DNA from: an uncultured Pseudomonadota bacterium
GTDB taxonomy: Bacteria; Oederibacteriota; Muellerivitia; Muellerivitales; Muellerivitaceae
Assembly (NCBI GenBank): GCA_963836235.1
Contig: CAWIIP010000005.1
Span: forward strand, 69,353 to 133,352
Length of the DNA stretch: 64,000 nt
Reading direction: 5' to 3'
The position numbers were made by a program, and so were the translations under genes. This document shows positions 23,608 through 59,344 of this stretch, in pieces; the first letter of the stretch is position 1; every line of letters begins with the position of its first letter. A model generated the notes under the pieces. That model had not been told where the DNA came from. It ran no database searches and saw only the letters and a list, made by a program, of their open reading frames with translations.

Positions 23608-23610
23608 AAG

Positions 23611-26157: not shown

Positions 26158-26179
26158 TTTTTCTCCCTCGCTTTAAAAC

Positions 26180-28621
26180 TTATTGACCCAGGACTTGGGA
26201 GAAACCAATTCCCGGATTTCTGATGGTGACGTCCTCAAACCAGGCGTTCGATATTAAAAAAGATAAATAATGAATTTGATGAGGGCCTTTTGAAAGAAAA
26301 CGAGTCTGAGAAACTGCGTGAGGCCTTATCCATTCGACCGGAATGGACGAAAGGGCTTTCTTCCCGTCGATCCAAATTTGAACCGGATTGGGACTGTTAA
26401 TGGTAAAGGTATATTTCCCATTCTCCGGTACCATCCATTGGCCGTCCGCTGATACAGAATGAGCCCCCATTCCCCCAGGTAACGGGTTCAATTTGGCGTT
26501 AGAATCTTCATACTGAATCATGCCTCGTCCCAAGCCAAAGTAAGTGACATAAACGCGTCGGAGCCACTTTTTTTCCGGAACCACCCGAAACATGAACAAC
26601 TTTCCTGGCTTTTCGGGTATGTCCCCTGCGGGAATGACCACGTCATACATGGTGGGAGGGTCCGCCTTTGATTGGTAATATTCCCACTTTGGAATCCATT
26701 GGGCCTTAGGAAAATCCTTCTTCAATATAGGGGCCCATTGTTTATCCAGCCCGGCAATAATAACGGATAAATCCTTACGAGGCTCGTTCGCAAGAACATC
26801 AATCACATTGGTGGTCTGTAGCAGGTAAAGAGGCTCGCCATCGTGAATGACCCCCTCCACTGCAGGAGAAGCATACCCCATTCCGTCATAAACCCCCATG
26901 TAAACCCGTTTCGTCGGAAGTTGATCCGATATTTCCTGGGAAACCAGGATGTCGGGCCGCATCATGTTCCACCACTTATCGTAAACCCTGGTGAAAGTGC
27001 TCTTCCCTTCCCACGCCCAAAAGACCGTCAGGCCCAGGATTAGAAGAATGCCCATCCAGCGCCGAACGCCCTTTCCGGCCATGAACCCAGAAACCCACTC
27101 TTCCAGTCCCCAGCAGGAAAGCAGCATCATGGCGGGAAAAGCCCCCAGAATTTTCGCGCTGGTGGGATCAACCGTCATAAGTCTGCCGGCCACGCCCACA
27201 AAACAACAAAGGACTAAAAACAACCTGGTCCAAGAAAAGCGGGAGACCGCGAAAACCAGTCCCACGAAGGCCAATACGGCCGCTTGGTAATCAAAAAAGG
27301 GATCGCCTTCCACGTTCATGTCCGAACGGTCATCACCGGTGACAAAAAGGGTCCGGACGCAGATGGACAACTGGGAGATCATGGCGCGTAAGGGGATACG
27401 TTCATCGTGGATTTTAATCGTGATTTCCGGGTCCATCGCCAGCGGATAAACCAAGAAGCCGGCCAAAAGAACGCCCAACCCCCAACTCACCCACAACCGT
27501 TCCTTGCCCTGGGCGGTCCGATAGAAATATCCCATGGCGGTAAAGAGCAAGACTTGGATCACCATCCAAACGGTGAGGTTCCAGCTCCAAAATTTGGAAA
27601 TGGGATTGCTTGGAAAAACGAAGAACAGCCTGTCCAGGAGGAAAAGAAAAAGCCCGGAAAAGGCCGGGATAAGGAAAATAGCCAGGGGCCAGCGGATGGA
27701 TCGGGCCCTCTCCTTCCAAAAAATCCAGGCGAAAGTGACGAAAGCCAGGAAAAGCATCCAAGGCCGATAGGCGATGTAACTATAGAAGCCAAAACCCAAG
27801 AGGAACCCCCATTGAAGAAAATGGGACAAGTCGGGCTTGCGGAATAGGCGGAATTGGAACCAAAGGATAAGGGTAATGATGAAGGGAAGGGTCAAGCCCG
27901 GCATCCCCCCGAGGTTCTGCATGATCATGGGCTTGCTGAAGGTGCCCAGAGCCGCCAGGAAAAGTCCCGTCATCCTTTTCCCCGTTATTTCCCGGCCTAA
28001 CCGGTAAAAGAGCCAGCCCGCCCCGACGTCAAATAGTGTTGAGGTGATTCTTTGCACCAAGAGACCTTTCATGGTCGGGAAAAGCGACCACAAACCCGCC
28101 GCTGCGTATGGGTAGAGGGGTTCCCGGTGGCCGATGGCGAAGGTCATTCGGAATACGTGGAGCTCAAAAATATTGCAGGGATCGATAATGCAAATGGCGG
28201 GATCGTCCCAATAACGTCCCATGGGTTGGTCGCCCCGGTAAAGCCTCATATAAGCGGTCAAGGCCAAGAGACCCAAGAGAGCCGGGTAGGCAATCAATCG
28301 GGGTACATCCAAAGAAGTGGGTTGGGAAGGAAGTCCTCGAAAACCCAAAAATAAAATAAAGGCCGCCAGCCACAGGAGAAAGTTTAAGTGATTGACCGGT
28401 AGCGGGAAAGGAACCCCCAACCACCGAAAGGCATCGAACTGCAGGAAAACCGCCCCCACCAGCAGGAAACCCAGTAAAAGAAGAAAAAAAGTTTCAGGCG
28501 CGACGCGGGTCGGTGGCGCGGCAAGTGTAGAAACGGCGGAAGGGTGGGCCGTCCCCCCTTCCTTTTTCAAAGGAAAGGTCTTCCGGCGGACGACTCTCCG
28601 TTTTCGGTTAGGCTTGGCCAA
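26180..28621 (-). CDS. PMT/ArnT-like GT-C glycosyltransferase with C-terminal PA14-like domain (tandem paralog 1)
   Basis: Same architecture (REPLYPYAAAGLWSLFP loop; C-terminal GLGRGMIQYEDSNAKLNP...GKYTFTINSPNPVQIWIDGKKAL). It starts 38 nt downstream of the NHL gene on the same strand. Confidence 0.7.
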   Translation of the reverse strand: MAKPNRKRRVVRRKTFPLKKEGGTAHPSAVSTLAAPPTRVAPETFFLLLLGFLLVGAVFLQFDAFRWLGVPFPLPVNHLNFLLWLAAFILFLGFRGLPSQPTSLDVPRLIAYPALLGLLALTAYMRLYRGDQPMGRYWDDPAICIIDPCNIFELHVFRMTFAIGHREPLYPYAAAGLWSLFPTMKGLLVQRITSTLFDVGAGWLFYRLGREITGKRMTGLFLAALGTFSKPMIMQNLGGMPGLTLPFIITLILWFQFRLFRKPDLSHFLQWGFLLGFGFYSYIAYRPWMLFLAFVTFAWIFWKERARSIRWPLAIFLIPAFSGLFLFLLDRLFFVFPSNPISKFWSWNLTVWMVIQVLLFTAMGYFYRTAQGKERLWVSWGLGVLLAGFLVYPLAMDPEITIKIHDERIPLRAMISQLSICVRTLFVTGDDRSDMNVEGDPFFDYQAAVLAFVGLVFAVSRFSWTRLFLVLCCFVGVAGRLMTVDPTSAKILGAFPAMMLLSCWGLEEWVSGFMAGKGVRRWMGILLILGLTVFWAWEGKSTFTRVYDKWWNMMRPDILVSQEISDQLPTKRVYMGVYDGMGYASPAVEGVIHDGEPLYLLQTTNVIDVLANEPRKDLSVIIAGLDKQWAPILKKDFPKAQWIPKWEYYQSKADPPTMYDVVIPAGDIPEKPGKLFMFRVVPEKKWLRRVYVTYFGLGRGMIQYEDSNAKLNPLPGGMGAHSVSADGQWMVPENGKYTFTINSPNPVQIWIDGKKALSSIPVEWIRPHAVSQTRFLSKGPHQIHYLSFLISNAWFEDVTIRNPGIGFSQVLGQ

Positions 28622-28659
28622 GTTAAAGAACCGCCCTCTGTGTCATGTTATCCGTTTAA

Positions 28660-29682
28660 TCAGGGAGTCGTTGGCGGCAATTGGTACAAGCCGACATGAT
28701 CGCCGCCGGCTATCATTAAAACATCGTCCGGGCTAACGGCCAAACCCCGGTCTCCCTGGATCAACACTCCTTTTTCATCCGTGAGGTCTCCCAGATAGCC
28801 GGTTTTAATACTATAGGCTTTCACGCAGCTGTTTCCGTTGGTGGCCGTGGAAACGAAGAATCTACCGTCTTTGTCCACCGCAACGGCAGCGACGCCGGCC
28901 TTGTACTTGAAAACCTTGAGTACTTTTCCGTCCTGGTCAAGCCATTGAAGACGCTCGTTTTCCGAATCGGCGACGAAATAATTCCCCTTCCCGTCCGAAG
29001 CCACGTCCAAAGGACTTTTGAATTGACCTTCGTCGGTGCCAAATCTTCCCCAAGAAGCGGCAACATGGCGATCAGGGGCGATCAAAAGAATTCTGTGGCT
29101 TCCCGTGTCGGCCAACAGGAAATTCTTCCCGTCGTAACCGATTCCCCGGGGGCCGTAAAGGTTTTTATCCCCTAAGTCGAGGTTTAATATTTGTTTTCCA
29201 TTTTCGTCATAACCCTTGATGGTACTGTTCCATGTATCGATTACATAACCGAACCCCTTATCGTCGGAAACCATTCCAGAGGGTTCATGAAAGCCCACAG
29301 AACCGCCTCCAGGCTTCCCCCAACTTTTTAAGAGGTTGCCCTTCCGGTCGAAAACCAAGACGCGGTTGTTTCCCTGGTCGACCACCATGACCTTGTCCTT
29401 CCCAACCGGCCCCACGCCCCAGGCGTTAAAGGGACCGCACTTGCTGTTTACACCCGAAAAGGTGCTGAGGGTCTGGACTTTGTAATCCTTAGGGACTTCC
29501 CCGTGGAAAAGGTTCATGCTTTCCACCAAGCAACCGATCAAGACCAGGGCTATCAATATCCGGATAACCGCCTTGCTTGAGCCAGACGCCGGGGGCGACA
29601 CCAGGGGTGGCGCTACGGGGGTTGTATACGCCGTCCCCCCCAAGTTCTTTTTTTTCGCGCTAGTTTTTTTCCGTGGCGGCAT
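28660..29682 (-). CDS. Membrane-anchored NHL-repeat beta-propeller protein (paralog 2)
   Basis: Lys-rich tail MPPRKKTSAKKKNL, a Pro/Ser-rich linker, one TM helix, then NHL blades. About 75% identical to the 37619-38641 product across the propeller. It is the first gene of the NHL/GT-C/GT-C/GT-C/YfhO gene string. Confidence 0.7.
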   Translation of the reverse strand: MPPRKKTSAKKKNLGGTAYTTPVAPPLVSPPASGSSKAVIRILIALVLIGCLVESMNLFHGEVPKDYKVQTLSTFSGVNSKCGPFNAWGVGPVGKDKVMVVDQGNNRVLVFDRKGNLLKSWGKPGGGSVGFHEPSGMVSDDKGFGYVIDTWNSTIKGYDENGKQILNLDLGDKNLYGPRGIGYDGKNFLLADTGSHRILLIAPDRHVAASWGRFGTDEGQFKSPLDVASDGKGNYFVADSENERLQWLDQDGKVLKVFKYKAGVAAVAVDKDGRFFVSTATNGNSCVKAYSIKTGYLGDLTDEKGVLIQGDRGLAVSPDDVLMIAGGDHVGLYQLPPTTP

Positions 29683-29715
29683 AAACCCTCCAATGAGATT
29701 CCAAATTTAGACGTC
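29683..29715 (-). promoter_or_regulatory. Conserved 5' leader/RBS element shared with the paralog at 37589-37618
   Basis: The 30 nt directly upstream of the ATG (GTCTAAATTTGGAATCTCATTGGAGGGTTT, minus strand) match the leader of the NHL paralog at 37589-37618 (GTCTAAGTTTGGGATCTCATCGGAGGGTTT) at 27 of 30 positions. Sequence further upstream and the first ~30 codons are unrelated. Confidence 0.4.
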
Positions 29716-30179
29716 CGACCCTGAATTCATTCTTTAATTTCAAAAAATAGAAGACCAAAAAAATCAACCCTTACCAGTGCCAGAATAAAAGCATAAAATC
29801 GGGCCCGCCCGAAACACGGGGTTTTTCACAAAAACACAGGGATTTTCCTTCGTAGAATGGCAAGGCCAGTAGGATATAACATCCTTTCGGCGATAACAAA
29901 GATTTTTTGGTGGTTGAACGCCTAAAACTTTCATGGCACCGTTCGAAAAAGGGCATTAACCAGGGGCAGTGGCATTGAGGGGGTGGAAGCCCAATCCGAA
30001 CGCTACCAACGGACACGCAAGCGTGTCTTCGCCTATTCTCAAGCCGTAAAAAATGGCTTTAAATTCAAACCTCAGGGCATCTTTACGTTTGTGTCCTACC
30101 CTTGACCCAAGTCAAGGGCCCCCCGACGCCAATTGGCAGCTGCATCCGGATTCAAAACCATCGGATGATCAAGTTTGAT

Positions 30180-32414
30180 TTAGTTCCATAGAGTTGTCCA
30201 TGAGTCCCTCTGCATGAACCAATCGGTCAAAGCCGGAAAATTGTGGCGCATGTAATAATATTCGTTGAAGGGGCAATCGTCGGTAATAACGATGCGCTTA
30301 TTCGAGTTGGTAAATCGGGCGTCCACGGAGTCCCCCAAAAAATCCCCCAGCAAGCTCTCGAGGGTTGTGCCAGAAGGCGCCCATTCCAGCATGTCGGCTT
30401 GGGCGGCAGGCGGTACCCTCGTAATCAACTCACTCACCGCAGGCACCTGGATGGGCTCCATGGAAGCGACATAATAAAGGCCGCCGACATTTCGGGTAAC
30501 AGTAGGAAAAACTTTGACATAGGGAAAGGACTCGAGGATGGTCCGGTTGAAAGCATTATCGGTATTGTAATTGTCCGCGTAATACCAAATTTGAAAAAGA
30601 CCTCCCTTTTTCAAGTGCGCCTTGATGATGCTAAAAAATTCCTTGGACAACAATAGGCTGCAGCCCGCGGCTTGCGGCGGCGGAGGCGGGTCAATGACAA
30701 TAACGTCATAAAGATCCTTCGTGCGCTTCAGGTATCTCCGGCCGTCGTCGATGACAACCTTGGCTTTGGGATTGCTCATTATTTTTTCGGCGTCGTCAAA
30801 AAAATACCCAAAGGAATCCCTCACGCTGGGGGTCAACTCCACGGCCGTGGTATCAATGCCCCAACTAACGAGAGACCGGAAGGACCCCCCCATCCCGAAA
30901 CAAATGGTCAAGGCGTTTTCAGGTTTGTGATCCAGCAAGCATAGGGGTATGTGGGCCATGAACTTGGTTGTGGTTCTAAGAACTGTCATTCTAATACCAT
31001 TGACGTATAACATCCGGTCAAAACCCGTGTCAGCGCAAATGACGGTAGCGTTGTAATCTCGGCGGACGACCCCCTTCACGAGCGTCTCATAACTATTGCT
31101 GATGAGAACAGAAACGAACATAAGAAGGATGGCGGCGGTGGGCACGGCCAGCTCACGAGGTTTCAGCGCCTTCCAATGCTTCAGTATCAGGATTAAAAAA
31201 GGGAAAGCCAAAAGCGCTAAGGAAAGCTTCACTCCCAGCCACGGAAGACAGAGATAGGAAGCGAGCAGGGGCCCCAAAATGCATCCAATCACGTTCACCG
31301 CATAAGCCTTCCCGGCGTTTTTGGGATTCCCTCGACCGATTTCGTCCACCAACTTGGGGGTCAGGTACCCCAGAATGGCGCAAAAAGGGACGATGGTCAG
31401 AAGAATGCAAAAAGTGGAATGGTTAAATCGGGGATCGGTGAACACGACCGGGAAAAGGGAAAAAACAGCCACCCAAGCCAGGAGCATTTGATGGGTGAGT
31501 TTCTTGGCAAAAACCCATCCGGACCGGTAAACAAGGGAGCCGATCCACGTCGACAAAAGATAGGTGAACAGGATCGCGCCGAAAGAATAGACCTCGTTTC
31601 CGATGATGGGAATGAAGGCCCTGGTCCATATCACTTCCATGGCCATGGAGCCGAAACCGCTGAGGAATAGAATGCTCACCATAAGTTTCGTGTCAGGCCG
31701 CCAAAATGGCCGGGAATCCAGTTCGGGCTTCGTTTTTTTACCCGCTCTGGGGGCGGCTTTGGTTTCCGATGGCCATATTCTCAATACGATACCCATGGCG
31801 ATCCCCAAGAAAGCGACGCTGAAATTCATCAAGGCCCCAATAATAAGGGTTCCTGAAAAGCCGAGTAGTTCGATGAAGGCAATGACGGTAAGAAAGGTCC
31901 CCCCCAGGGCGCCCAGTACATTCGCCACATAAAGATAGCTGAAACTGGTCGTCTCGGAAGGTACCCTTTCCTTAACAAAAGCCATCATGAGGGGAAAAGT
32001 CGCCCCCATAAAGAAGCACCAAGGAAGGATGGAAATCGCGATAAACATCGCCGAGGCAAGGAGATAACCGAACGAATTCATCTCGCCGAACCCCAAGAGA
32101 ACGCTCGAGCTCCAATGAAAAAGTTTAGGTACCGCGAAAGCTCCCAGGCCGATAAATAATTCCGCCAAGGCGTAGAAAAAGATCGGCGAGATTTTCAACT
32201 TTCCCGCTACGCGCGAAACCCAGACCCCGGCCAGCCAAGATCCAAGGGCTAAACCCATCATGAAGATGGAAATGACGACTGAGAGAACGGGGGTATTGAC
32301 CCCATAGGTGGCGTAGGCCAAGCGCACCCAGACGATTTGGTAAAGCAGCCCGCAAAATCCGGAAAAAAAGAACATAAGAAACACGAAGGGAAAAAGGATT
32401 TTATTTTTTTGCAA
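30180..32414 (-). CDS. Fused MFS-like transporter / spermidine-synthase-like (PABS-fold) protein
   Basis: N-terminal ~480 aa carry 12-14 TM helices of MFS type. The C-terminal ~260 aa have a class-I MTase/spermidine-synthase-like fold (ALTICFGMGGSF ... VVIDDGRRYL ... DVIVIDPPPP) with a degenerate GGGDG motif. Confidence 0.7.
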   Translation of the reverse strand: MQKNKILFPFVFLMFFFSGFCGLLYQIVWVRLAYATYGVNTPVLSVVISIFMMGLALGSWLAGVWVSRVAGKLKISPIFFYALAELFIGLGAFAVPKLFHWSSSVLLGFGEMNSFGYLLASAMFIAISILPWCFFMGATFPLMMAFVKERVPSETTSFSYLYVANVLGALGGTFLTVIAFIELLGFSGTLIIGALMNFSVAFLGIAMGIVLRIWPSETKAAPRAGKKTKPELDSRPFWRPDTKLMVSILFLSGFGSMAMEVIWTRAFIPIIGNEVYSFGAILFTYLLSTWIGSLVYRSGWVFAKKLTHQMLLAWVAVFSLFPVVFTDPRFNHSTFCILLTIVPFCAILGYLTPKLVDEIGRGNPKNAGKAYAVNVIGCILGPLLASYLCLPWLGVKLSLALLAFPFLILILKHWKALKPRELAVPTAAILLMFVSVLISNSYETLVKGVVRRDYNATVICADTGFDRMLYVNGIRMTVLRTTTKFMAHIPLCLLDHKPENALTICFGMGGSFRSLVSWGIDTTAVELTPSVRDSFGYFFDDAEKIMSNPKAKVVIDDGRRYLKRTKDLYDVIVIDPPPPPQAAGCSLLLSKEFFSIIKAHLKKGGLFQIWYYADNYNTDNAFNRTILESFPYVKVFPTVTRNVGGLYYVASMEPIQVPAVSELITRVPPAAQADMLEWAPSGTTLESLLGDFLGDSVDARFTNSNKRIVITDDCPFNEYYYMRHNFPALTDWFMQRDSWTTLWN

Positions 32415-32817
32415 AAGGAGTCCTCCGGGCGAATGATAAAAGACGGCTAAATTCCTAACAAAAATAAACTAAAACCACACAAAAAAAATTCCTTCAATCG
32501 GACCACCGCTCAATTTCCACCCCCGGCAATTATCAAAAGGGCTTAACCTCTCACCGACAAGACACCGGAGGGAGGAAGTCCTGAAAGGCTCTGCTCATGA
32601 CGGATAAAAACCGGATTTCAAAAACGGACTCTCCCAGAGGGGCAGCCGAATTATATCACAAAAGAATCAGGGGCGATCAATGAGCGGATTTCCAGCACCC
32701 TTTTAAAAACCACCTTTGAAATCTTCGAACCGACCGGGTTTGCGTGAGGCTTCATCTGCATAAAAAAAATTCATTTCCATTGTGGGTTTTAACGGCTCGG
32801 CCTTAAGACTCCATCCA

Positions 32818-35148
32818 CTACGATCGTTTTCCGGAAGGGCGCGGGCTTTTTCTACGGCCTTCAAAATTCGCGGCCACGGTTTTCACTGGTCGAGCTAAAG
32901 GGAAAACTCCTCCAAATCGGGTGGAGAACCATTGGTCCAACCGCCGGTGGAAGAACCAAGCGGCCACTAGGGCTATCCAGGTGAACAGTGAATAATAGAA
33001 AGTATAAACAATGATGGGTGGATAGAAGGACATTTTCACCTGATGGTGGCCTGTCATTAAAAGGGGGACCGCCCGGAAGGTTCCATCCGCCTGGTAAATG
33101 GGTTCCTCCTTGCCATCCACCCATGCCTTCCATCCCGGGAAGTAGGAATCCGAGAGGAAAAGAAAACAGGGCCGATCGTTCGAGCATTCCATTTCCACGT
33201 CGTTGTAATCGTAACGTGTGATCTTGGCTTCACCCACCCACCCTTTCAGCCCCTCTGGTTTTTCCACGGGCTCTCGGGCCAAGACCACTTCCTGCCGGGG
33301 GTCCAACTTCTCATCCCGGATGTCCTCAATGACTTGGTTATAATCCGGATTCACCCTGTAGCCGCCCACCATAAAGGCGCGAGGATAGGCCTTCATGTTG
33401 TTCCAAACCGACACCATGGCTCCTGGGATCGGTTGCCAACGATCAGTGGGATGGGAACCTTCCGGCCGGTAATTGTATTTAAGTCGTATCAAATCTACCA
33501 GCGGCGTTTCCTGATGGTAATATTCCTCATCCATGTATTTTTGGGTCGTCTGGATAAAAAGGGAACCGCACCCGGTAACAACGGAACTGATGTTTTGAAG
33601 GAGCTGGTATTCGCAATAGGTGCTTCCGGGCTGGGCTCTCGGATAGGTGGGGTCATCCTTGATCTTTTTGAGGAGGCCGGGCGGAAATAAATCGGTAAAG
33701 AAGAAATTGGACCCGCCCGAACCAATGGCATTTTTCGCGTCGAAACGGTAAAGGTCGATAGCCGTGCCCAAGAGCAGGAATGTGGGGACCCCAAATGCGA
33801 GAAAGAACCTAAAAAACCCGGTTAAGCGCTTTTGATTCCTCCAGTAGTTGGTCCAGACGTCCAAAGTCAGGCCAGCCATGCAAGCCAGCACGAAAGTCGT
33901 CAAAATCATAATACGGGAGGGAACCCGGTTACGCGCAAGCCCTGGAATGAATTTGGAAAAGAACAAATAAATATAATGGGTCGGCGTGGTGGTATCGGCC
34001 ATGGCCAAGGTCATGCTTAAAACGGCCACAAGGCCCAGCCACCAAACCACGGGCCTCTTCCGTAACCCTACAAAGCCCAAAAGGGCAAGGAAAATAGGGA
34101 TAAGTCCCAGGTAAGCAATGACTTCCGCGTATCCCCCTGTTCCATGGTAATTTCCCGGATCTCCAGCGAAAAAAGGATCGATAAAAAAACGGAAATTGGC
34201 AGGGACAAAAGCATCCCGCATAAAATCATGCGAATCCCAAAGCATGCGATTGCTTAAAAGGGCGAACTGATAGGTCGGCGCCATTTGGCACAACCCCAGG
34301 GAAAAACCAATCAGGATAAAAGCCGATTCCGCGCCCAAGAATTCCTTCCAATTGATTCCGCCTCTCATCCAGGCCCAAAGGAGAAAAAAACCGGTAATCA
34401 TCAGGACATATAGGCTGATTTGGGGCGTGCCATCCAGGATACACAAGCCGAAAGCCCCGGATGAAAATAATAGGGCGGAAATCCGGTGGTTATCCGTAAA
34501 TCGCTTGAGACCGTAAAGAGCAAACGGAAACCAAGCGGCCCCGGTAATAATGTTTAAGCCACCCATATAAAATTTACCCATAAAGTATCCGGAAAAGGCG
34601 AAAGCCAACCCGCCCAGGCAAGCCCCTATCCAACCGGTTCCCAGGCTTCGGATGAAAAGGTAGGTTCCGAAAGCCAAAATGATGAAATGGAAAAAGTAGC
34701 TCAACGTAAAGGCATAGCTGGTTGGATACATGAAAAAAAGGAAATTAAAAGGTGCATAGGGCCCAGAGCTGGCACTGGCCAAGAAAGGCTGGCCCATGCT
34801 GCTATAGGGATTCCACAGCGCAGGGTAGCCCCTTTTCAAGCTTTCGATCCAAACATACTTGTAGGGCCACGCGCATATCATGTCCCCAATGCCGGGGATC
34901 CACTCGCGATGGGTTAAAAAGGGCCAAAGGAAGAGGGCGCTAAATATGGCGAAAAAGACGCAGGCATAAAGGGATTCTAATTCAAAAACACGCCCATTAT
35001 TTTCCGTTTCCGAAACCGGCTCTTGACGCGGCAAGTCCAATGAATGGGACGCCCAAGACGAAACCTCGGGGGAACGTTTGGATCTAATTCCGCCTTTTTT
35101 CGACATGAATTTTTTTTTCAAAATAAATTCCTTGATATCCGGATTCAT
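32818..35148 (-). CDS. YfhO-like GT-C membrane protein (paralog B)
   Basis: 776 aa. N-terminal motif MICAWPYKYVWIESLKRGYPALWNPYSSMGQPFLASASSGPYAPFNFLFF parallels 18719-21070. Same topology, including a terminal TM helix. Confidence 0.6.
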   Translation of the reverse strand: MNPDIKEFILKKKFMSKKGGIRSKRSPEVSSWASHSLDLPRQEPVSETENNGRVFELESLYACVFFAIFSALFLWPFLTHREWIPGIGDMICAWPYKYVWIESLKRGYPALWNPYSSMGQPFLASASSGPYAPFNFLFFMYPTSYAFTLSYFFHFIILAFGTYLFIRSLGTGWIGACLGGLAFAFSGYFMGKFYMGGLNIITGAAWFPFALYGLKRFTDNHRISALLFSSGAFGLCILDGTPQISLYVLMITGFFLLWAWMRGGINWKEFLGAESAFILIGFSLGLCQMAPTYQFALLSNRMLWDSHDFMRDAFVPANFRFFIDPFFAGDPGNYHGTGGYAEVIAYLGLIPIFLALLGFVGLRKRPVVWWLGLVAVLSMTLAMADTTTPTHYIYLFFSKFIPGLARNRVPSRIMILTTFVLACMAGLTLDVWTNYWRNQKRLTGFFRFFLAFGVPTFLLLGTAIDLYRFDAKNAIGSGGSNFFFTDLFPPGLLKKIKDDPTYPRAQPGSTYCEYQLLQNISSVVTGCGSLFIQTTQKYMDEEYYHQETPLVDLIRLKYNYRPEGSHPTDRWQPIPGAMVSVWNNMKAYPRAFMVGGYRVNPDYNQVIEDIRDEKLDPRQEVVLAREPVEKPEGLKGWVGEAKITRYDYNDVEMECSNDRPCFLFLSDSYFPGWKAWVDGKEEPIYQADGTFRAVPLLMTGHHQVKMSFYPPIIVYTFYYSLFTWIALVAAWFFHRRLDQWFSTRFGGVFPLARPVKTVAANFEGRRKSPRPSGKRS

Positions 35149-35218
35149 TTCGACCGACTTAAATTATCGCATAAAATCACCGTCTGGGGTAAAGGCCAGC
35201 CATTTCAAAAGTTTGAAC

Positions 35219-36280
35219 TTACGTGTTTTGGGTCTTATGGGCAGTGGCATAGAGCAGAAGCCCGTTGACCACGAAAACTCTTTCCAGGGTAAAGCCATTC
35301 TCAGCCAAAGTCCTTTTTAACCGCACCTTGGTGAAATGGTGGATATGCCCGCAACGGTACTTATGGTAAACACTCCCTCGGATATAACCCATGTAAAGGC
35401 AGTTCAAGTTGAAAAGGATGAAGAAGGGCCCGAGGAAGAAATCGTAAGGAACGGTGATGAGAAATTTTCCATTGTCCTTCAGTATCCGGCGGACCTCCCC
35501 CAAAACATCCTTTTGGTTGAAGACATGCTCCAAAACCTCGGACATAAGCACCACGTCAAACCCCTTGGATTTTAAGCCCGTTTTGGACAGGTCCGCCGCG
35601 ACCTTGAAACCCGTCAGCCGCTTGTTCTTTTTCGCCCATTTCAACATTTGGGCATTGATGTCCACCCCGAAGACCGGCAGGTGGTGGATGTTCCATTTGC
35701 AGTTTCCGCAGCCCAGGTCCGCCATCTTCATACCCTTTTGGAAGGACTCGGATACGAATTGGGTTAACCGCTCATAACGGGAACGGTGATACCAAGCCCT
35801 GAACTTGCTCACTTTGGTTTCATCCGTCATTTCATCGTAATAACTTTCGTTCATCTCCTTGTATTCCACCTCGGCCATCTTTGCCGAGCTAAAAGTGGAG
35901 ATGCGGTTCAAAAAGGCGTTGGAAACCGCCAGGATGATCAGGCAGGTAATGAGCCCCTCGGGCAGGCTGAAGCCCTGGCTCATGAAAACCCAAAGCATGG
36001 CCGCGCTCCCTACCGAAACCCAAAAACTCATGAACAAATGCAGGGGGAACGAGGTTTTCATTTGAATTTCGTGGTTCACATAGACCACGTTGTAATAAAC
36101 GAAGTGGAAGGCTTGGTTGAAAAAGGTCCCGATGAAAAAAGCGATCATGGGATTCCAACCGAGGCGGAGGGCCAGGAAAAGGGTCACTCCCAAATTGAGC
36201 GCGGCGCCCAAAAATCCCCCCAGCAGGAAAATGAGGATCGCGGGGTGTCGCCAGCGTTGGACCACGGCATGCTCAGGCAT
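35219..36280 (-). CDS. GtrA-like membrane domain fused to class I SAM-dependent methyltransferase
   Basis: The N-terminal ~150 aa form a 4-TM GtrA-like module (ILIFLLGGFLGAALNLGVTLFLAL...). The C-terminal domain has MTase motif I MADLGCGNCKW and motif III DVVLMSEVLEHV. Confidence 0.65.
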   Translation of the reverse strand: MPEHAVVQRWRHPAILIFLLGGFLGAALNLGVTLFLALRLGWNPMIAFFIGTFFNQAFHFVYYNVVYVNHEIQMKTSFPLHLFMSFWVSVGSAAMLWVFMSQGFSLPEGLITCLIILAVSNAFLNRISTFSSAKMAEVEYKEMNESYYDEMTDETKVSKFRAWYHRSRYERLTQFVSESFQKGMKMADLGCGNCKWNIHHLPVFGVDINAQMLKWAKKNKRLTGFKVAADLSKTGLKSKGFDVVLMSEVLEHVFNQKDVLGEVRRILKDNGKFLITVPYDFFLGPFFILFNLNCLYMGYIRGSVYHKYRCGHIHHFTKVRLKRTLAENGFTLERVFVVNGLLLYATAHKTQNT

Positions 36281-36283
36281 GGT

Positions 36284-37093
36284 TTATCCTTTACGCGCGA
36301 CGATGAAGTAACAGGCTCCCGGCGCGCCATCGGTGTTGAGGTCTTTGCGCAACCAATTCGTCGCGAACCACTTGACCGGCCCACGGGGGCCGACGACCCA
36401 CCGTCCAAATAGAAGTTTGATGATCTTGGAAGGAAAGGCCAGGATCATCCAGCGTTCATAGGTATGAAAAGTCTTCAGGGGAATAATGTAGTCGGCCTTT
36501 TCCATTTTGAGCCCGGCTTTTTTCAAGCGTTTTTTCCAGATTTCGGCGTTGTCTACATGGAAGTGCTTGAAGGTTTGATTCAGTTTGTCCACATACAACT
36601 TGCCCAAGCCAGAAAGACCCACTTTCGAAAGCAGGTTACGGAAGAAGGAATCGTTGCTGAAGCATTCGCTAGGGACGGTAATTATCAGGCGGCCCTTAGG
36701 CTTCAGCACCCGGTGAATTTCCTTTAAGGCGCCGTCGATATCCGGAATATGTTCCAACACACAATTACTGACCACGGTCTTAAAGGAGTTTTTGGGGAAA
36801 GGCAGTTCAGTGGCGCTGGCGCAAAGAGCCTTTTTGTAGCTTTTACTCTCAACCGCTCTTTTAACCTCGTCCGGGTCTAGGTCAATGCCAGCTTCCAAGT
36901 TGCCACCAAAGGCGACCCTAGCCAGGAAGCCATCCCCGCAACCCACGTCCAAAACAGGATGTTCCAACTTTTCCTTCGAGAATCGGTGGCATTCCATCGA
37001 ACGCCAAAAAGCCATGGCGATGGGTGTTTTTTCCAGGTATTGGCGAAAAAATTCCTCACGGCTTCTTGGGTCAATTTTCAAATGCTTCTCCAT
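36284..37093 (-). CDS. Class I SAM-dependent methyltransferase
   Basis: Motif I VLDVGCGDGFLA, VVSNCVLEHIPD, and RVLKPKGRLIITVP. It stops 3 nt upstream of the GtrA-MTase gene. Confidence 0.75.
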   Translation of the reverse strand: MEKHLKIDPRSREEFFRQYLEKTPIAMAFWRSMECHRFSKEKLEHPVLDVGCGDGFLARVAFGGNLEAGIDLDPDEVKRAVESKSYKKALCASATELPFPKNSFKTVVSNCVLEHIPDIDGALKEIHRVLKPKGRLIITVPSECFSNDSFFRNLLSKVGLSGLGKLYVDKLNQTFKHFHVDNAEIWKKRLKKAGLKMEKADYIIPLKTFHTYERWMILAFPSKIIKLLFGRWVVGPRGPVKWFATNWLRKDLNTDGAPGACYFIVARKG

Positions 37094-37588
37094 AAAGGAC
37101 TTGGTTTACTAAAAAGGTACCGAAAATACTTTTAAGCAACCTGTTAAAAGTATCTTAGTTTACCAGTAAAGGGTCGTTTCCGGATTGCCAACTTTAAAAT
37201 CTTCTAAAAAATTGTGCTGAACTACCTTCCCGGCACTAATGTAATCAGCCAATTCTTCGCTCGGTCCGAACTCCCGGAGACCAACAACGCGGCGTCAAAA
37301 TCCGAATGACAAAGCGAAACTTTCCTCCCTTTTGACATTTAACTGGAAAATTGGTCTTGATCGGCTCCGAAGCTTAAAGCCAAAAGACTTAAAGTGATTG
37401 ACCTTCTAAAACTGGATCGTAAAATCATGTCTCGGGATATTTGTTTAGCTTTAGTCAATTTGATTCAGTGGATGAGAGCTAAAACTCGATTGGGTGGTTG
37501 ATGTCCATTTGCCGCAAGCTCCAAATCCGGGTTAATACGCCAACAAAGCTTCTAACGATATAATCATGGGAATGTATCAACCTAAAAT

Positions 37589-37618
37589 GTCTAAGTTTGG
37601 GATCTCATCGGAGGGTTT
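37589..37618 (+). promoter_or_regulatory. Conserved 5' leader/RBS element (partner of 29683-29715)
   Basis: See 29683-29715. The two 30-nt leaders of inverted NHL paralogs match at 27 of 30 positions and include the GGAGGG RBS. Confidence 0.4.
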
Positions 37619-38641
37619 ATGTCGTCGTTGAAAAGCACAAACACCAGTCAAGAAAACTTGGGAAATTCCAACCATCAACCGGCGCCAATGCCGCTTCAGG
37701 GAACGCCCCGGGCATCAGGCGGGGGCAAAACCTTCGTCCGGATTTTGATCGCCCTCGTGTTGATTGCGGGCGTGGCGGGAAGCTTGTATTTTTTCCTGGG
37801 GAAAACCCCTAAAGATTTCAAAGTCCAGTCCCTCGTTACCTTTTACGGAAATAACAACAAATGCGGGGCTTTTAATGCCTGGGGCATCGGGCCCGTTGGG
37901 AAGGACAAGGTGATGGTGGTGGACCAAGCGAACAACCGCATCTTGGTTTTCGATCGAAAAGGTAACTTCTTAAAAAGCTGGGGAAAACTCGGATCGGGCC
38001 CTATGGGCTTTCATAGCCCCACTGGAATGGTTTCGGACGACAAAATCGGCTACGTGATCGACTCCTGGAACAGCGCCATCAAAGGTTATGACGAAAATGG
38101 AAAACAAGTGTTTAAGCTTGATTTGGGAGACAAAAAGCTTTACGGCCCCCGGGGAATCGGCTTTGACGGAAAGAATTTCCTCCTGGCCGACACGGGAAAC
38201 CATCGGATCCTTTTGATCACACCCGATGGCCATACCGCCGTCTTTTGGGGAACAATGGGTGCAGAAGAAGGTCAATTCAATGAACCCGCTGATGTCGTTT
38301 CAGACGGCAAAGGAAATTATTTCGTGGCGGACACGCTAAACAACCGCGTCCAATGGTTAGATCAAGATGGAAAGGTGGTTAAAGTTTTTAAATTAGAAAA
38401 GAATGTAGCGGTTGTAACCCTGGATCAGGACGGAAGGCTTTATGTGTCAACCGCTACCAAGGATGGAGCCAGTTGCGTAATGGTTTACAGTCTCAAAAAG
38501 GGTTACTTGGGCGAACTTAAGGACGAAAACGGCTCTTTGGTTCCGGTGGACCGAGGCATGGCGGTTAGTTCAGATGATGTTTTAATGATTGCAGACAGTG
38601 ACCACGTTAATTTGTACCAAGTGCCTGCCACTGACCCCTGA
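37619..38641 (+). CDS. Membrane-anchored NHL-repeat beta-propeller protein (paralog 3)
   Basis: N-terminal tail, one TM helix (FVRILIALVLIAGVAGSLYFFL), then NHL blades. About 75% identical to 28660-29682. Confidence 0.7.
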   Translation: MSSLKSTNTSQENLGNSNHQPAPMPLQGTPRASGGGKTFVRILIALVLIAGVAGSLYFFLGKTPKDFKVQSLVTFYGNNNKCGAFNAWGIGPVGKDKVMVVDQANNRILVFDRKGNFLKSWGKLGSGPMGFHSPTGMVSDDKIGYVIDSWNSAIKGYDENGKQVFKLDLGDKKLYGPRGIGFDGKNFLLADTGNHRILLITPDGHTAVFWGTMGAEEGQFNEPADVVSDGKGNYFVADTLNNRVQWLDQDGKVVKVFKLEKNVAVVTLDQDGRLYVSTATKDGASCVMVYSLKKGYLGELKDENGSLVPVDRGMAVSSDDVLMIADSDHVNLYQVPATDP

Positions 38642-38744
38642 TGGTTGTAAATTCGATCTTATTAGAAAACGTTCACCGAATCGGGCGAGCTTTAAAAAGC
38701 TTCCTGCCGACAGAATTTAAAAAAAAGTTAAACCTTAATTCGCA

Positions 38745-40639
38745 TTATCTACGCTTCTTAACCTTCGGCTTCTTCCCTAGAACGCGCCATATCCCATAGG
38801 ACAAGAATCCCGCGCAGGTGGCGAAGGCATCTCCGGTAGCGGCCTCGCCGGTATTCTCATCCACCGATTCACAGGCGATCCCATTGTCCATTTTGGCGTT
38901 CTTGAGAAACTTCAAGGCCCTGTCTTTTTGCTCCGCCAGCAGGCTGTTCACCGAAGCCAAAACCCAGGGGTGGGGGGCGTGGGCGCAGCCCACTTCCTCA
39001 AAGGGCTTGCCCGGGAAGGAATAGGGATAGTCCGCCGAGTAAATCCAATCCCGGCACCTCTTCCAAAGGGGGTAAGAAACCTTGCAAAATCCGTAATGGG
39101 GCAGAAGCAAAAGACTTCCGGGCGGTTCGTCGTAAAGCATGTGGCCGTTTTTCGGTTCCAGGTCCGCCGACCAGGCGAACATGCGGCCCTTGGGGCCCTT
39201 CACCACGCAATAGCGGATGATGGCGGCCTTCACCAGGCCCGCTTGGCGTTGGAGGCGGCTGATTTTGACCGACAAAAGCTTGTTCTTCTCCATGCGGTAA
39301 ATCTGAGCTAAGTCCATCAAGGCCCGCCAGACCAGGACGTTGTCGTAGGTCACATAGCGTTGGGGCCAAGGGTCATCGGAGGGCAGTAGCCAGGTTTGGT
39401 ACAGGTCTTTCTTAGGGTGCTTCTTCAGCTGCCAATTCCCTCTCGAACCTCTCCAGGCTTTCCCGAACCCCCGGCTGGTTTAAAAAGCCCAGGTCCCGGG
39501 TGGCCTCCAGGTAATTCCTCAGGGCGATCAACTGGCGCGCAAAACTCATCCAGTTCAAACCCCGGTTCCAATACCGCCCCGTTCAAATAACGGCTATGCA
39601 CTCCGAAATTCCTCGCCTGCCGGGTAAAGACGTAACCCAGGACTTTCCGGGCCCATTCCGGGTCCAAGGCCAGAATCGAGGGGAAGGACCAAAGCAGGGT
39701 ATCCCTGTCCCAATAGGCCCCACTGACATAATAACGGTTGCTTCGGGAAGTCAGGCAAACCGTTTCTTCCGTGTCGATGGTCACCCCGGTCGCGTAAAAG
39801 CGGTTGAAGAAGGCGTTCACGTTCATCAGGCTATCCAGCTGGGGGTCCTTGGTTTTGGTGGTCCGCTGTTTCTCTCCCAGCCACTTCACCGTTTGCTGCC
39901 GGAGGGCCTTCCCGCCCGTCCTTTGCAGTTCCCTAGCGGAGGAGAAGGCGCCGATCTCATCCAACCCGAGCCCGAAATAAAAGTGGGCCTGCCAGGCCTC
40001 TCCCTTTTTCACTTCCTTGGATTGAAGCCAATGTAAAAGCAGGCTCTCCTCCCCTTCCAATAAGGTTTCCCGTCCCGTGGGATTTAAGGCTTGAAGGCCT
40101 TTGCGGAAGAAGAAGCGGCTGGTCTTATCTTGGGGATAGGGTGCCAAGGCAACCAGGGGGGCGGGCGAACGGAATTCGAGGGCCGGCATGTCCTCCCAAG
40201 TCTTGGCCACTAAAAAGCGGCTTCCTTGGAGGGGTTTGGTGACATTGATGCTATGCAAAAGGGAAGACCAAGCTATATCCGCAGAAAGGCCGCAATAGAA
40301 GGAGTTCTGGGAAAGGTTGGAGATCCTCAGGGAAAGAACAAAACCCCTTTGGCCGAAGGGGCAAAAGTAAAGACCTTCCACTTCCAGCCAATCTTCCTTC
40401 AGACGGAACTTCGGCAGCCAGTCCCCTTCCCTTTCCCAGGTGAAGCGGCCATCCAGGACCAAATCCTCGTCATTGATGGTGATCCGGGGGGTCAAAAAGG
40501 GGGTCGCCCCTCCTGAAAAAGCCAATAGGCCGTTCGCGCCCATGTGAATGACATTCACCTGTTCCACCGCCCCATCCCTTTCACGGATGGTTGGCAGGGC
40601 CACATACTCGTTGCCAGTCGGGATGTATTTTTCTTTCAT
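38745..40639 (-). pseudogene. Frameshift-disrupted glycoside-hydrolase-like gene: N-terminal beta-sandwich plus (alpha/alpha)6-barrel; GH15/GH125/GDE-type, family uncertain
   Basis: Two adjacent ORFs (39425-40639 and 38745-39353) lie in different frames. The upstream ORF ends in a low-complexity tail (DRPEELPGGHPGPGLFKPAGGSGKPG). The downstream frame stays open upstream to 39479 (…DLYQTWLLPSDDPWPQRYVTYDNVLVWRAL). Both pieces look like parts of one (alpha/alpha)6 glycosidase (YVSGAYWDRDTLLW; NVLVWRAL). Confidence 0.4.
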
Positions 40640-40711
40640 TCAATCATTTCCTTTAAGCCGTCTTTGCCGGGGATTTCCGGAACATCATAACGATGTTTTG
40701 AAGCCGTATCC

Positions 40712-42805
40712 TCACTGATTCGATGGCCGGTAAGCCCCCTGTTGCACCAGGTAATCCAGGCCCCTTTTGGCCTCCGCGTGATCCGGTTGGAGTTTCAACA
40801 CCTTTTCGAATAATTTGCCCGCCAGGGCATTATTGCCCGTCTGTAAAGCCACGACGGCCCAGTTGAAATAAGCGACGATATATTGGGGATCGAGTTGGGC
40901 GGCCTTTTCATACCAAGCCAAGGCATCGTTCACCCGGCCTACGTGGTAACAAGCGTTCCCCAGGTTATAGGCATATTGAGCATTTTGGGGGTCCCATTTC
41001 TGGGCCCACTGGAAACAATTCAAAGACCTCTCATAATCCTGTTCAAGTGTCAACAAATCAGCGGCCTTGGAATGGGACGTGAGTTGGGCCTTGGCGTCGT
41101 CCCCCTTGTCCTCATAAAAAGTCCCCAGGCTGTTGCGGAAAACGCCGTAATCCTTATAAATAAAATTGCGAGTCTGATCATCCATGACAAACCCGGCTTC
41201 CACCATGTGCCTCAACCTCAGGGCGTTCCAAACCGCGTCGGAACGGGCCTCGTCCAGAACCAGCTTTTCCCCCGGCAAAAAACCCTTACCCGTCACCCCA
41301 TAAAGAACCATTTTAATTTCCGGCAGGGGCCCGTCTTTATAACGGTTATAGCTGAAATAAAGTTCCCGGTCCGGGTTCTTATCGATCATCCATTTCGCCA
41401 AGGGGGATACCGCTTCATTACCCATCGGCTGGGTGGTTCGGGGAACTTTCAAACCCGGATGGAATCGGGCCAGATTCGCCCGTACCCATTCCATAGGCAA
41501 GCCGTCGATACCCACCATCGCGACGTCGGGACGCTTTTGTTCCACCCATTGGAAATACCAGGCGGGAAAAATGATGGTGTCGCCCCGGCAAAGGTACAAG
41601 GCGTTTCGGGGAAGGGCCTTGAATCCGTTCAAAACCGAATCGTAGGAATAGGTGTAATCAGTCTGCCTTTCGGTGGAAAAACGATGGACGGCCAACCCCA
41701 CCAGCCAAAGAAGAACAAAGCCAAAAATTATTTTTTCAATCCTCGGTCTCCATTCCGCCTTCAAAATTGAAAGACCGGTTTCCAAACCCCAGGCCGAAAA
41801 CAGAAGAATGAACAAATGGGCGGTCATCCCATACTCTTGGATGAGAAAAAACTTTTCCTTTGAGAGATTCAGGTAAATTCCTAAAATCAAAACGATGGAA
41901 ACCCACGGCGCGATAAATACCCAAGCCCAGGATTTCAGGGGAGACCACCGTCGAACCGCGTAGATTCCCCCGAAAGCCGCCAAAAGCATTCCCCCAAATT
42001 CCCAGAAAGCCGCTTGAAGATAGGTCCACCACTGTTGAAACCAGACCAAGGGACCCCCACCCACATCGGGCGCCAGATATTGGCTTCTTAAAAAGTCATA
42101 AACAAAGTTATGCCACGTGACGGGATTGCCCCAATTCAAAGCCGGGCCTTGAAGCGACCTCAGGGGAAGTAAAAGATAAAGGGAAAGGCCCAATAAGCCG
42201 GCGGAAGCCAATTGGATCAAGGGCTTTTGTTCAAACCCTTTTTCCTTCCATCTAAAATAAAAGAAAAGGCTGAAGCCCGGAAGGTAAGCCATCATGGTCA
42301 TCCAGTGATTGGCGAAGGAAAGCCCCAAAAGAAAGCCAAAAAATAATAGGCGCCCTTCGAAGAAGGCCCAAAGGATCGCCAGAACGAAAAGAGCCGTCAA
42401 TTGATAGATACCGGTCTTGGCGCTTAAGGCGGCCGGAAAGGTGGTGGCCCCGGCCAGCCAAAAGAGGGCGAAAAGGGCGGCCCATCGGTTGGAGACATGG
42501 AGTTTTTGCCTCAAAAAACCGTAAAGCAGCAGGCAAACCCCCGCCGCCAGACAGGCGGACAAGAGGTTCACCCGGAAGGGGTAATGGGACAGGGGAAGGC
42601 GGGAGAAAAGGAACCCCATTAGGGTGAAAAGGGGGTAACCGGGCGGGTGGGGTATCCCCAAACTCACACTGGCGGTGACTGTTTCCGGGCTGTCATCCGC
42701 GTAGAAAGTGGGATTCAGCCCCACCAGAGCGAAGGAAAAAACCAGAAAAACCAGGAGAAAGGGCGTCAGCCGCTCCCATCGGTTGGTTGGGGGAAGGTTG
42801 TCCAT
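40712..42805 (-). CDS. DUF2723 (TMEM260-like) GT-C-fold membrane protein with C-terminal TPR repeats
   Basis: N-terminal motif YADDSPETVTASVSLGIPHPPGYPLFTLMGFLF is the DUF2723 signature, followed by about 11 TM helices. The C-terminal ~180 aa have 3-4 TPR repeats (AQYAYNLGNACYHVGRVNDALAWYEKAAQLDPQY...). Confidence 0.7.
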   Translation of the reverse strand: MDNLPPTNRWERLTPFLLVFLVFSFALVGLNPTFYADDSPETVTASVSLGIPHPPGYPLFTLMGFLFSRLPLSHYPFRVNLLSACLAAGVCLLLYGFLRQKLHVSNRWAALFALFWLAGATTFPAALSAKTGIYQLTALFVLAILWAFFEGRLLFFGFLLGLSFANHWMTMMAYLPGFSLFFYFRWKEKGFEQKPLIQLASAGLLGLSLYLLLPLRSLQGPALNWGNPVTWHNFVYDFLRSQYLAPDVGGGPLVWFQQWWTYLQAAFWEFGGMLLAAFGGIYAVRRWSPLKSWAWVFIAPWVSIVLILGIYLNLSKEKFFLIQEYGMTAHLFILLFSAWGLETGLSILKAEWRPRIEKIIFGFVLLWLVGLAVHRFSTERQTDYTYSYDSVLNGFKALPRNALYLCRGDTIIFPAWYFQWVEQKRPDVAMVGIDGLPMEWVRANLARFHPGLKVPRTTQPMGNEAVSPLAKWMIDKNPDRELYFSYNRYKDGPLPEIKMVLYGVTGKGFLPGEKLVLDEARSDAVWNALRLRHMVEAGFVMDDQTRNFIYKDYGVFRNSLGTFYEDKGDDAKAQLTSHSKAADLLTLEQDYERSLNCFQWAQKWDPQNAQYAYNLGNACYHVGRVNDALAWYEKAAQLDPQYIVAYFNWAVVALQTGNNALAGKLFEKVLKLQPDHAEAKRGLDYLVQQGAYRPSNQ

Positions 42806-44836: not shown

Positions 44837-44935
44837 CTCCTTTAAATTTCAGCCATTGGCGGTCAGCGGGTGGCTGGCAGCTTGTTTATCTTTCATATTT
44901 TGCTGACAGCCATCGGCTGCCGGCTAAAAGCCGGT

Positions 44936-59312: not shown

Positions 59313-59344
59313 AACCTCAGGAACCTCCCGACAAGATGACAGCT

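Follow-up and report, generated by a model that had tools for sequence, protein, structure and literature searches.

The window analyzed here, a stretch of 64,000 nucleotides from contig CAWIIP010000005.1 of an uncultured bacterium, carries three genes for membrane-anchored β-propellers of NHL repeats (NHL-A, NHL-B and NHL-C) among genes for glycosyltransferases of the GT-C fold. Judged from sequence and gene order, the NHL propeller family appears to be a core part of a conserved, hitherto undescribed envelope-glycosylation module. NHL-A and NHL-B, which lie in inverted orientation around a block of glycosylation genes, are an old, diverged pair of paralogs, both kept by purifying selection, and do not constitute a recombination switch. 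We favor, with a probability of about 0.45, a role for the propeller as a membrane-tethered glycan- or acceptor-binding partner of the GT-C enzymes.

The module was recognized from gene order in related genomes. Open reading frames (ORFs) were called in 22 related loci, which come from candidate division FCPU426 and from one metagenome-assembled genome (MAG) of Candidatus Firestonebacteria, and were compared with the window proteins, precomputed annotations being used in addition. In the window, the NHL-A gene (28660-29682, minus strand) is followed by the gene for a GT-C protein of 813 amino acids (aa) with a C-terminal lectin-like PA14 domain (26180-28621, minus), which starts 38 nucleotides (nt) past the NHL-A stop codon. 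The operon continues on the same strand over 15266-26157, with the GT-C/PA14 paralogs 23611-26157, 21115-23607 and 15266-18286 and a YfhO-like gene (18719-21070). The same arrangement was found in 14 loci (L003, L005-L008, L010-L013, L015, L020, L023, L024/L025 and L027), where the gene directly after NHL on the same strand encodes a homolog of 26180-28621 or 15266-18286, and homologs of 23611-26157 and 21115-23607 usually come next. The clusters also contain GT2 genes similar to those for polyprenyl-phosphate-sugar synthases. In the remaining four loci (L009, L014, L016 and L026) a GT-C gene lies within about 3 kb of the NHL gene. Counterparts of a pair of methyltransferase genes in the window (36284-37093 and 35219-36280) stand directly before NHL in L009, L011, L013, L015, L024 and L027, and in L024/L025 the whole is condensed into a compact operon of seven genes that encode, in order, a GT9 glycosyltransferase, a methyltransferase, a GT2 glycosyltransferase, two further methyltransferases (the second with an N-terminal membrane domain), the NHL propeller and a GT-C enzyme. 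The NHL-C gene lies in an operon of its own (methyltransferase, GT2, NHL-C, GT9, GT2), and this operon is also kept in L017, L018 and L021, and in L019 without its first GT2 gene.

The identities of the NHL protein and of its adjacent GT-C enzyme to their counterparts in the window track each other in most loci (62/62, 59/59, 50/55, 44/37, 44/42 and 41/35%). In L023, the closest relative in this comparison, the NHL protein is 77% identical, compared to 84-91% for the GT-C enzymes. The first-pass annotation of this DNA had described the propellers as embedded in a glycosylation island, and the embedding is strongly supported by the synteny, orthologous loci keeping NHL genes beside glycosyltransferases rather than unlinked from them. 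A rearranged region was seen in L026 (contig_14992, 918 kb), where the NHL gene is accompanied by two transposase genes of the IS1595 family and by NHL fragments, with a TMEM260-like gene about 2 kb away.

Among the other products encoded in the window are LptA, LptB, a lipid A acyltransferase, sigma-54 and HPr kinase; these genes, which include lipopolysaccharide (LPS) genes, indicate that the window is core chromosome of a diderm rather than a mobile island. The G+C content is 0.48-0.53 over the GT-C/NHL cluster (22000-48000) compared to 0.42-0.51 in the flanks. A horizontally acquired island was considered and rejected, given that no mobile-element genes were found, that the synteny is conserved across the phylum and that the shift in G+C content is modest.

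NHL-A and its inverted duplicate NHL-B (37619-38641, plus) were both found as ORFs of 340 aa on opposite strands, as annotated previously, with NHL-B divergent from the methyltransferase operon. Each protein consists of a cytoplasmic tail rich in Lys and Arg, one transmembrane helix and a six-bladed NHL propeller. They align by BLASTP from Met1 to the C-terminus in collinear fashion, with 66% identity over 341 columns (E = 4e-166). The identity is unevenly distributed, at 31% in the cytoplasmic tail, 50% in the transmembrane helix and 72.6% in the propeller, so that the earlier estimate of about 75% for the propeller domains was fair. At the DNA level a repeat search resolved the pair as an inverted repeat in three blocks of 74-76% identity (28907-29252/38046-38391, 29258-29597/37704-38043 and 29639-29712/37589-37662), and blastn gave a single alignment of 1,054 nt with 71% identity, running from 30 nt before each ATG to the stop codon. 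The similarity is thus not confined to the generic NHL consensus, as it extends through the transmembrane anchor and the leader with its ribosome-binding site.

The leader itself is more conserved than the coding sequence. The 30 nt before NHL-A, GTCTAAATTTGGAATCTCATTGGAGGGTTT (29683-29712, minus), include a GGAGG ribosome-binding site and match their counterpart before NHL-B (37589-37618, plus) at 27 of 30 positions, compared to 71% over the whole DNA alignment. The motif CGTCTAAA was also found about 30 nt before the ATG of the NHL orthologs in L003, L006 and L007, and in a variant form in L005. The leader containing this motif may be a promoter-proximal or translational control element. An Rfam scan of the whole window gave no match, so that neither the two leaders nor the long intergenic stretches before NHL-A and NHL-B show a known RNA or riboswitch, and a scan for promoters and terminators over 28.5-39 kb gave counts at or below shuffle expectation.

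Nucleotide differences between NHL-A and NHL-B fall mostly at third codon positions (78/54/170 for the first, second and third positions). The ratio of nonsynonymous to synonymous divergence (dN/dS), 0.14 for the whole gene and 0.09 for the propeller, indicates that both genes are under purifying selection. NHL-C (8029-9033, plus) is an older paralog with the same layout of tail, helix and propeller, having 33% identity to NHL-B over 315 columns (E = 3e-57); its identification as a third paralog in the first-pass annotation was therefore correct. All three proteins pass the gathering cutoff of 20 bits for the Pfam NHL family (PF01436), with scores of 62.6 for NHL-A, 50.8 for NHL-B and 46.3 for NHL-C.

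The position of the two copies in a neighbor-joining tree indicates how the pair arose. NHL-B and its ortholog in a sister MAG (P0002) form the sister group of a clade containing NHL-A, P0003, P0005 and P0006, and both clades lie inside a larger clade of single-copy genes, with the longer branch leading to NHL-B. Because the NHL-B group branches beside the NHL-A clade within the single-copy clade, the duplication is recent and lineage-specific. Copies in other genomes match NHL-A best, and NHL-A is the ortholog of the single-copy gene of the relatives. The NHL gene together with its 30-nt leader was duplicated in inverted orientation in an ancestor shared by this MAG and one FCPU426 sister MAG. 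Independent duplications of the NHL gene were found elsewhere, as a tandem pair in L009 (55% identity) and as a tandem triplet in L014 (65-70%). Gene conversion or concerted evolution between NHL-A and NHL-B was also considered, and was rejected on the tree and the identity matrix, identity within the genome not being raised.

It had further been proposed that the duplication seeded the island, and this the tree contradicts. NHL-B is a young offshoot, and a single NHL gene followed by GT-C genes is the older state, widespread in candidate phylum FCPU426 and present in one Firestonebacteria genome; the cluster is much older than the pair, and so the pair did not seed it. The two copies differ in their similarity to the sister MAG. 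NHL-B is 86% identical to its sister ortholog at the nucleotide level (L001, 10001-11026; dS 0.45), NHL-A only 75% (dS 1.55), and the surrounding genes are at 70-83%. Possible explanations for the high similarity of NHL-B are a constraint on codon usage from high expression or a more recent exchange.

The inverted paralogs had also been suggested to mediate inversion of the segment between them. In such a system, recombination between the NHL genes would flip the 7.9-kb block, generating chimeric propellers and rewiring read-through from the methyltransferase operon. The geometry permits this, the paralogs being inverted, in frame and collinear in their homology, and the genes in the slot upstream of NHL-A do differ in orientation between lineages. 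The evidence is nevertheless so heavily on the other side that we consider an invertible segment extremely improbable. RecA-dependent recombination falls with sequence divergence, and with arms that are 71% identical and share a longest exact match of 24 nt, recombination between them should be very rare. No recombinase, integrase, transposase or insertion sequence was found among the larger window ORFs, a scan that left aside the small ORFs on the 11168 side, 61713-62375 and ORFs of less than 180 aa. Orientation was compared in three assemblies: that of the window, that of the sister MAG and a second, independent one of the sister MAG from Logan. Despite a DNA divergence of about 20%, the sister MAG matches the window in collinear fashion over 18942-29908 and 35225-46238, each gene having the same orientation in both, and the Logan assembly agrees, so that a single orientation is seen throughout. 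In the tree the A and B clades are clean, with neither chimeras nor conversion. In relatives the changes of orientation are limited to the YfhO-like and MFS genes and do not extend to the entire block, and the loci concerned show a single NHL copy at this site. A metagenome scan for more genomes with the inverted pair returned only two distant single-copy loci. Thus the locus resembles invertible segments such as shufflons, phase-variable promoters and hsdS switches in having inverted homologous arms around a gene block, but differs from them in that the arms are only 71% identical, no recombinase was found and a single orientation is seen.

The variation that does occur at this locus is confined to an accessory slot at 29909-35224 (minus), delimited by the blastn breakpoints against the sister MAG. 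In the window the slot holds a YfhO-like gene (32818-35148, minus) and the gene for a fused MFS-like/spermidine-synthase-like protein (30180-32414, minus; NCBIfam NF037959, 62.5 bits, cutoff 40). The sister MAG has instead a 6.9-kb cassette for aminosugar biosynthesis, with genes for two DegT-type aminotransferases, an epimerase/dehydratase, a GFO/Idh oxidoreductase, two hexapeptide-repeat (LbH-type) proteins and a GT2 enzyme. The slot is bounded on one side by the 3' end of the methyltransferase gene 35219-36280 and stops on the other about 226 nt short of the NHL-A start, so that neither boundary coincides with an NHL gene. In L005, L007 and L023 the slot has the YfhO-like gene on the opposite strand, and L006 and L008 are arranged differently again. 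The slot is a hot spot for the exchange and rearrangement of accessory glycosylation genes, independent of the inverted repeat. This resembles O-antigen and capsule loci, in which a 5-7-kb block of such genes varies between close relatives while the flanks stay collinear, with the distinction that the exchange boundaries here lie at the methyltransferase 3' end and upstream of NHL-A, and not at the NHL paralogs. A caution follows for the reading of similar loci, since inverted paralogs around a variable block mimic a switch, although here a separate slot of gene exchange accounts for the variability and the divergence of the repeats is too great for recombination. The fused MFS/spermidine-synthase-like gene was also seen adjoining NHL/GT-C genes in L006 and L008, and its product could be a transporter or flippase candidate.

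Of the four genes that the first-pass annotation had listed between the NHL pair, the MFS/spermidine-synthase-like gene, the YfhO-like gene and two methyltransferase genes were recovered as described. The methyltransferases are both class I S-adenosylmethionine (SAM)-dependent enzymes. That at 36284-37093 (minus) is encoded by the first gene of the module of methyltransferase, membrane-domain methyltransferase, NHL and GT-C; the membrane-domain enzyme, at 35219-36280 (minus), carries an N-terminal domain of four transmembrane segments (4TM), and in relatives its gene is directly upstream of NHL. The label GtrA (PF04138) that had been given to this N-terminal domain did not stand, residues 1-130 matching no Pfam family at E ≤ 1, and we found no recognizable flippase of the GtrA, MATE or SMR type; the MFS-like domain of 30180-32414 is another candidate for this function.

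For the GT-C enzymes, assignment of the fold was based on structure prediction. When the 26180-28621 protein and its family profile were searched against the sequences of the Protein Data Bank (PDB), only the PA14 domain was matched and the membrane part found nothing, so the GT-C fold was established by AlphaFold2 and Foldseek. The model (pLDDT 84.6) matches STT3/PglB, EmbA/B/C, ArnT, AftD and ALG9 at low TM-scores of 0.36-0.43, and its C-terminus matches PA14 lectins, in agreement with a PA14 profile match at 2.6e-11. A WDD motif in the first loop and the motif YRLGRE..GKR are conserved in the families of 26180-28621 and 23611-26157, and the two more distant GT-C paralogs have variant first-loop motifs. 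An NCBIfam scan of the GT-C, YfhO-like and 681-aa NHL proteins (the last described below) assigned no family. The Pfam profile PMT_2 scored 20.2 bits against 23611-26157 and 26.7 against 15266-18286 (cutoff 26.1); it found no match in 26180-28621 or 21115-23607. The GT-C/PA14 proteins have no MIR domain, their C-terminus being PA14. Membership in the protein O-mannosyltransferases (PMT, GT39) is accordingly not supported, the PMT_2 scores being about or below the cutoff and MIR domains being absent.

Enzymes that could supply such transferases are encoded in the NHL-C operon (6313-11085, plus). Both GT2 proteins of this operon resemble polyprenyl-phosphate-sugar synthases in sequence, namely ArnC, the dolichol-phosphate mannose synthase (DPMS) of Pyrococcus and GtrB, the first (7124-7828, plus) being similar to ArnC, DPMS and GtrB at 1e-16, and the second (10369-11085, plus) having DPMS as best solved relative at 1e-27. 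The GT9 protein between NHL-C and the second GT2 (9197-10321, plus; heptosyltransferase family) has Cys clusters near its N-terminus (DCKHFTGEKPCAPHKAEGVVCQDCP) and near its C-terminus (PCQCYYQSQCTVKISC), which may be metal-binding sites. The listed GT9 ORF overlaps the next GT2 ORF by 109 nt, and orthologs of 239 aa suggest that the GT2 start is near 10369. Beyond NHL-B lie the genes for a GH125 α-mannosidase (38745-40639, minus) and for a TMEM260-like GT-C protein with C-terminal tetratricopeptide (TPR) repeats (40712-42805, minus). The GH125 gene is interrupted by two frameshifts within about 120 nt (frames -3, -1 and -2, around 39425-39543) and is intact, with 629 aa, in the sister MAG; the broken copy is either a pseudogene or the product of long-read indel errors in the assembly. 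At 58212-59896 (minus) a gene for myo-inositol-1-phosphate synthase adjoins one for a CDP-alcohol phosphatidyltransferase, suggesting synthesis of an inositol phospholipid, and one may speculate that a mannan-type glycolipid produced by the GT-C cluster could be anchored through this lipid.

The properties of the propeller family bear on the role of the NHL protein within the module. About 33 close full-length relatives were recovered at E < 1e-66, all of 328-346 aa and all sharing the layout described above. An AlphaFold2 model of NHL-B (pLDDT 86, and above 90 over the propeller) shows a transmembrane helix at residues 36-59 and 24 strands in six blades. Its best Foldseek matches are the solved NHL domains of TRIM2, Thin, Brat, PAL and PknD. 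The known NHL propellers (TRIM2/3/71, Brat, Thin, the PknD sensor and PAL) share the fold, with Foldseek E-values of 1e-18 to 1e-11 and TM-scores of about 0.8 on the target, but are only 17-28% identical to the window propeller, and their functions are not transferable to a context that here is bacterial, membrane-anchored and periplasmic. In the family alignment the transmembrane helix is better conserved than the tail, with an entropy of 1.69 bits compared to 2.48 bits, and in most members it carries a Glu/Asn pair at its outer end. Two family-invariant residues, W150 and R178, sit in the B-C and D-A loops of the propeller. Many members end in a Pro-rich tail with Ser or Thr, LP(P/S)x(T/A)P, and some instead read LPNFNQK or VPPAR. 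In the nearest outgroup proteins the NHL propeller is fused to a PrsW membrane protease, which indicates that NHL propellers serve more than once as ectodomains of membrane enzymes. The window encodes a fourth NHL protein, overlooked previously, of 681 aa (12768-14813, minus), in which the propeller is joined to a C-terminal domain with a GDSH motif; going by the motif, this domain is a putative SGNH-hydrolase-like domain. The sister MAG has a different NHL protein, of 663 aa and 30% identical, encoded between NHL-B and GH125, which the window lacks. A profile search with the NHL family alignment for fusions of NHL and GT-C was uninformative, its top 150 matches being swamped by giant proteins with multiple NHL repeats.

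We favor the binding-partner role because of the strict operon linkage, the conserved transmembrane helix and the tracking of NHL identity with that of the adjacent GT-C enzyme, and because of the invariant W150/R178 loops and the reuse of NHL propellers as ectodomains in combination with the GDSH domain and PrsW. The B-C and D-A loops form the top face of a propeller by the usual convention, and Trp together with Arg is typical of sugar-binding sites; in the modeled structure the W150/R178 loops would thus form a top face resembling a sugar-binding site. In the corresponding scheme, GT2 enzymes would charge polyprenyl phosphate with sugars on the cytoplasmic side of the membrane, the resulting lipid-linked sugars would be flipped across it, and in the periplasm the GT-C/PA14 enzymes would pass them on to an acceptor, whether an envelope glycan or another. 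The NHL propeller would stand next to the GT-C enzyme, tethered to the inner membrane, and would bind or present this acceptor as a specificity or scaffolding partner, and the extra paralogs (NHL-B, NHL-C and the tandem copies elsewhere) would widen or split the acceptor specificity. The physical partnership of NHL and GT-C proteins, the binding of a ligand and the nature of the acceptor are what we infer in this scheme. A more committed form of it, in which the propeller is an obligatory noncatalytic subunit of the GT-C enzyme that selects or presents the acceptor, with paralogs diversifying specificity by analogy to the accessory subunits of eukaryotic oligosaccharyltransferase, is possible but on balance doubtful. 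In a stronger variant of this subunit proposal, the propeller itself would prime a periplasmically assembled glycan, resulting in a bacterial molecule similar to a proteoglycan.

Several observations weigh against a binding partner. The GT-C enzymes carry a PA14 module of their own, which leaves no obvious need for a further subunit for binding. The Foldseek search with the NHL-B model gave only generic NHL propellers and no lectin. NHL-B of the window has lost the Glu/Asn pair at the end of its transmembrane helix (37724-37795, residues 36-59), reading VAGSLYFFL where others have VAESLNFFL or VESMNLFH and where the sister ortholog keeps the pair, and this argues against a strict intramembrane contact for NHL-B. 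The faster evolution of the NHL protein than of the GT-C enzymes in L023 also fits a surface-exposed substrate.

That last point leads to the proposal that the propellers are dedicated substrates, each an anchored acceptor or primer for an O-linked glycan that GT-C enzymes assemble in series. Such a process would be akin to the O-mannosylation of folded domains by eukaryotic PMT, TMTC and TMEM260, or bacterial targets that are encoded beside their glycosyltransferase. It is consistent with the strict adjacency of NHL and GT-C genes, with the presence of TMEM260-like and PMT_2-like GT-C proteins and of DPMS-like GT2 enzymes, and with the rate difference in L023. The repeated independent duplication of the NHL gene (L009, L014 and this pair) is a pattern common for surface proteins. 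The Pro-rich tail of many members could likewise offer Ser or Thr for modification, but there is no linker rich in Ser or Thr, and the C-terminal Ser or Thr is not conserved across the family, as the endings LPNFNQK and VPPAR illustrate. The PA14 domains of the GT-C enzymes suggest that the acceptor is a carbohydrate, as with GT-C enzymes bearing a carbohydrate-binding module (CBM). The presence of GT9 and LPS genes in the module and window suggests a lipid or LPS as acceptor, and the strong purifying selection on the propeller loops exceeds the need of a passive carrier. We consequently regard the substrate role as unlikely. Less probable again is that the propeller is an enzyme acting on the nascent glycan, for example as a lyase, esterase, lactonase or oxidase. 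Parallels exist among NHL and six-bladed enzymes, namely PAL and virginiamycin B lyase, and GlxA of Streptomyces is a membrane-anchored propeller enzyme encoded beside a glycan synthase. Foldseek matched PAL (3fvz) and streptogramin lyase (2z2p and 2qc5), and the B-C and D-A loops are conserved. The matches to Pfam SGL/lactonase profiles are weak, however, the SGL matches being below the gathering score, and among the invariant residues of the family there is no His, Cys, Ser or Tyr to furnish a metal site or nucleophile, H132 and H195 being variable; most of the invariant Asp, Gly and Arg residues belong to the repeated structural NHL motif.

By itself the NHL-A/NHL-B pair is mostly ordinary, a case of diverged paralogs, and it is the conserved NHL/GT-C module that merits experiment. 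Bacterial GT-C enzymes are generally considered to work by themselves or with no more than a lipid-sugar synthase and a flippase. The present data add a fourth component, a tethered β-propeller kept beside GT-C genes across a whole candidate phylum, and make the propeller a testable candidate for an acceptor-recognition subunit or a dedicated glycoprotein target. In the literature we found no direct precedent for the association of NHL with GT-C, of PA14 with GT-C, or of a fused MFS/spermidine synthase with glycosylation. The papers listed for FCPU426 appear, to judge from titles and abstracts, to be community surveys.

Comparison with known pathways places the cluster among systems that glycosylate from polyprenyl-phosphate sugars. 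With the eukaryotic O-mannosylation pathways (PMT/POMT, TMTC1-4, TMEM260 and Dol-P-Man synthase) it shares the TMEM260-like protein with TPR repeats, the weak PMT_2 matches and the DPMS-like GT2, with a GH125 α-mannosidase gene alongside; it differs in having no MIR domain and in its best structural matches, which are STT3/PglB, Emb and ArnT at the low TM-scores of 0.36-0.43. The mycobacterial lipomannan and arabinan lines (PimE, MptA/B/C, EmbA-C and AftD) are similar in that several GT-C enzymes, some of them carrying carbohydrate-binding modules, act in series with polyprenyl-phosphate sugars as donors, and the genes for inositol-1-phosphate synthase and CDP-alcohol phosphatidyltransferase about 20 kb away add to this likeness. 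Unlike those lines, the present organism is a diderm with LPS genes and belongs to another phylum; there is no sequence-level relationship, and those pathways have no NHL component.

In its logic the cluster agrees with the scheme of extracytoplasmic glycosylation from polyprenyl-phosphate sugars that has been reviewed and extended (PMC11127046), having GT2 and GT-C enzymes, two YfhO-like proteins and the TMEM260-like protein with TPR repeats. In one characterized system of three components, the acceptor glycan is bound by the CBM at the C-terminus of the GT-C enzyme (PMC11127046). The cluster shares with the three-component systems (GtrA/B/C, ArnC/ArnT, CsbB/YfhO and GT136 of Citrobacter youngae; PMC11127046) the GT2 enzymes similar to polyprenyl-phosphate-sugar synthases, the GT-C transferases with a C-terminal domain of carbohydrate-binding type, and the YfhO-like proteins. 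It departs from them in having three to seven GT-C enzymes per cluster and, as core members, an anchored NHL propeller and two to three SAM methyltransferases; no GtrA, MATE or SMR flippase was recognized in it. What is new here is the addition of a conserved propeller and of methyltransferases to the known glycosylation by GT-C enzymes from polyprenyl-phosphate sugars.

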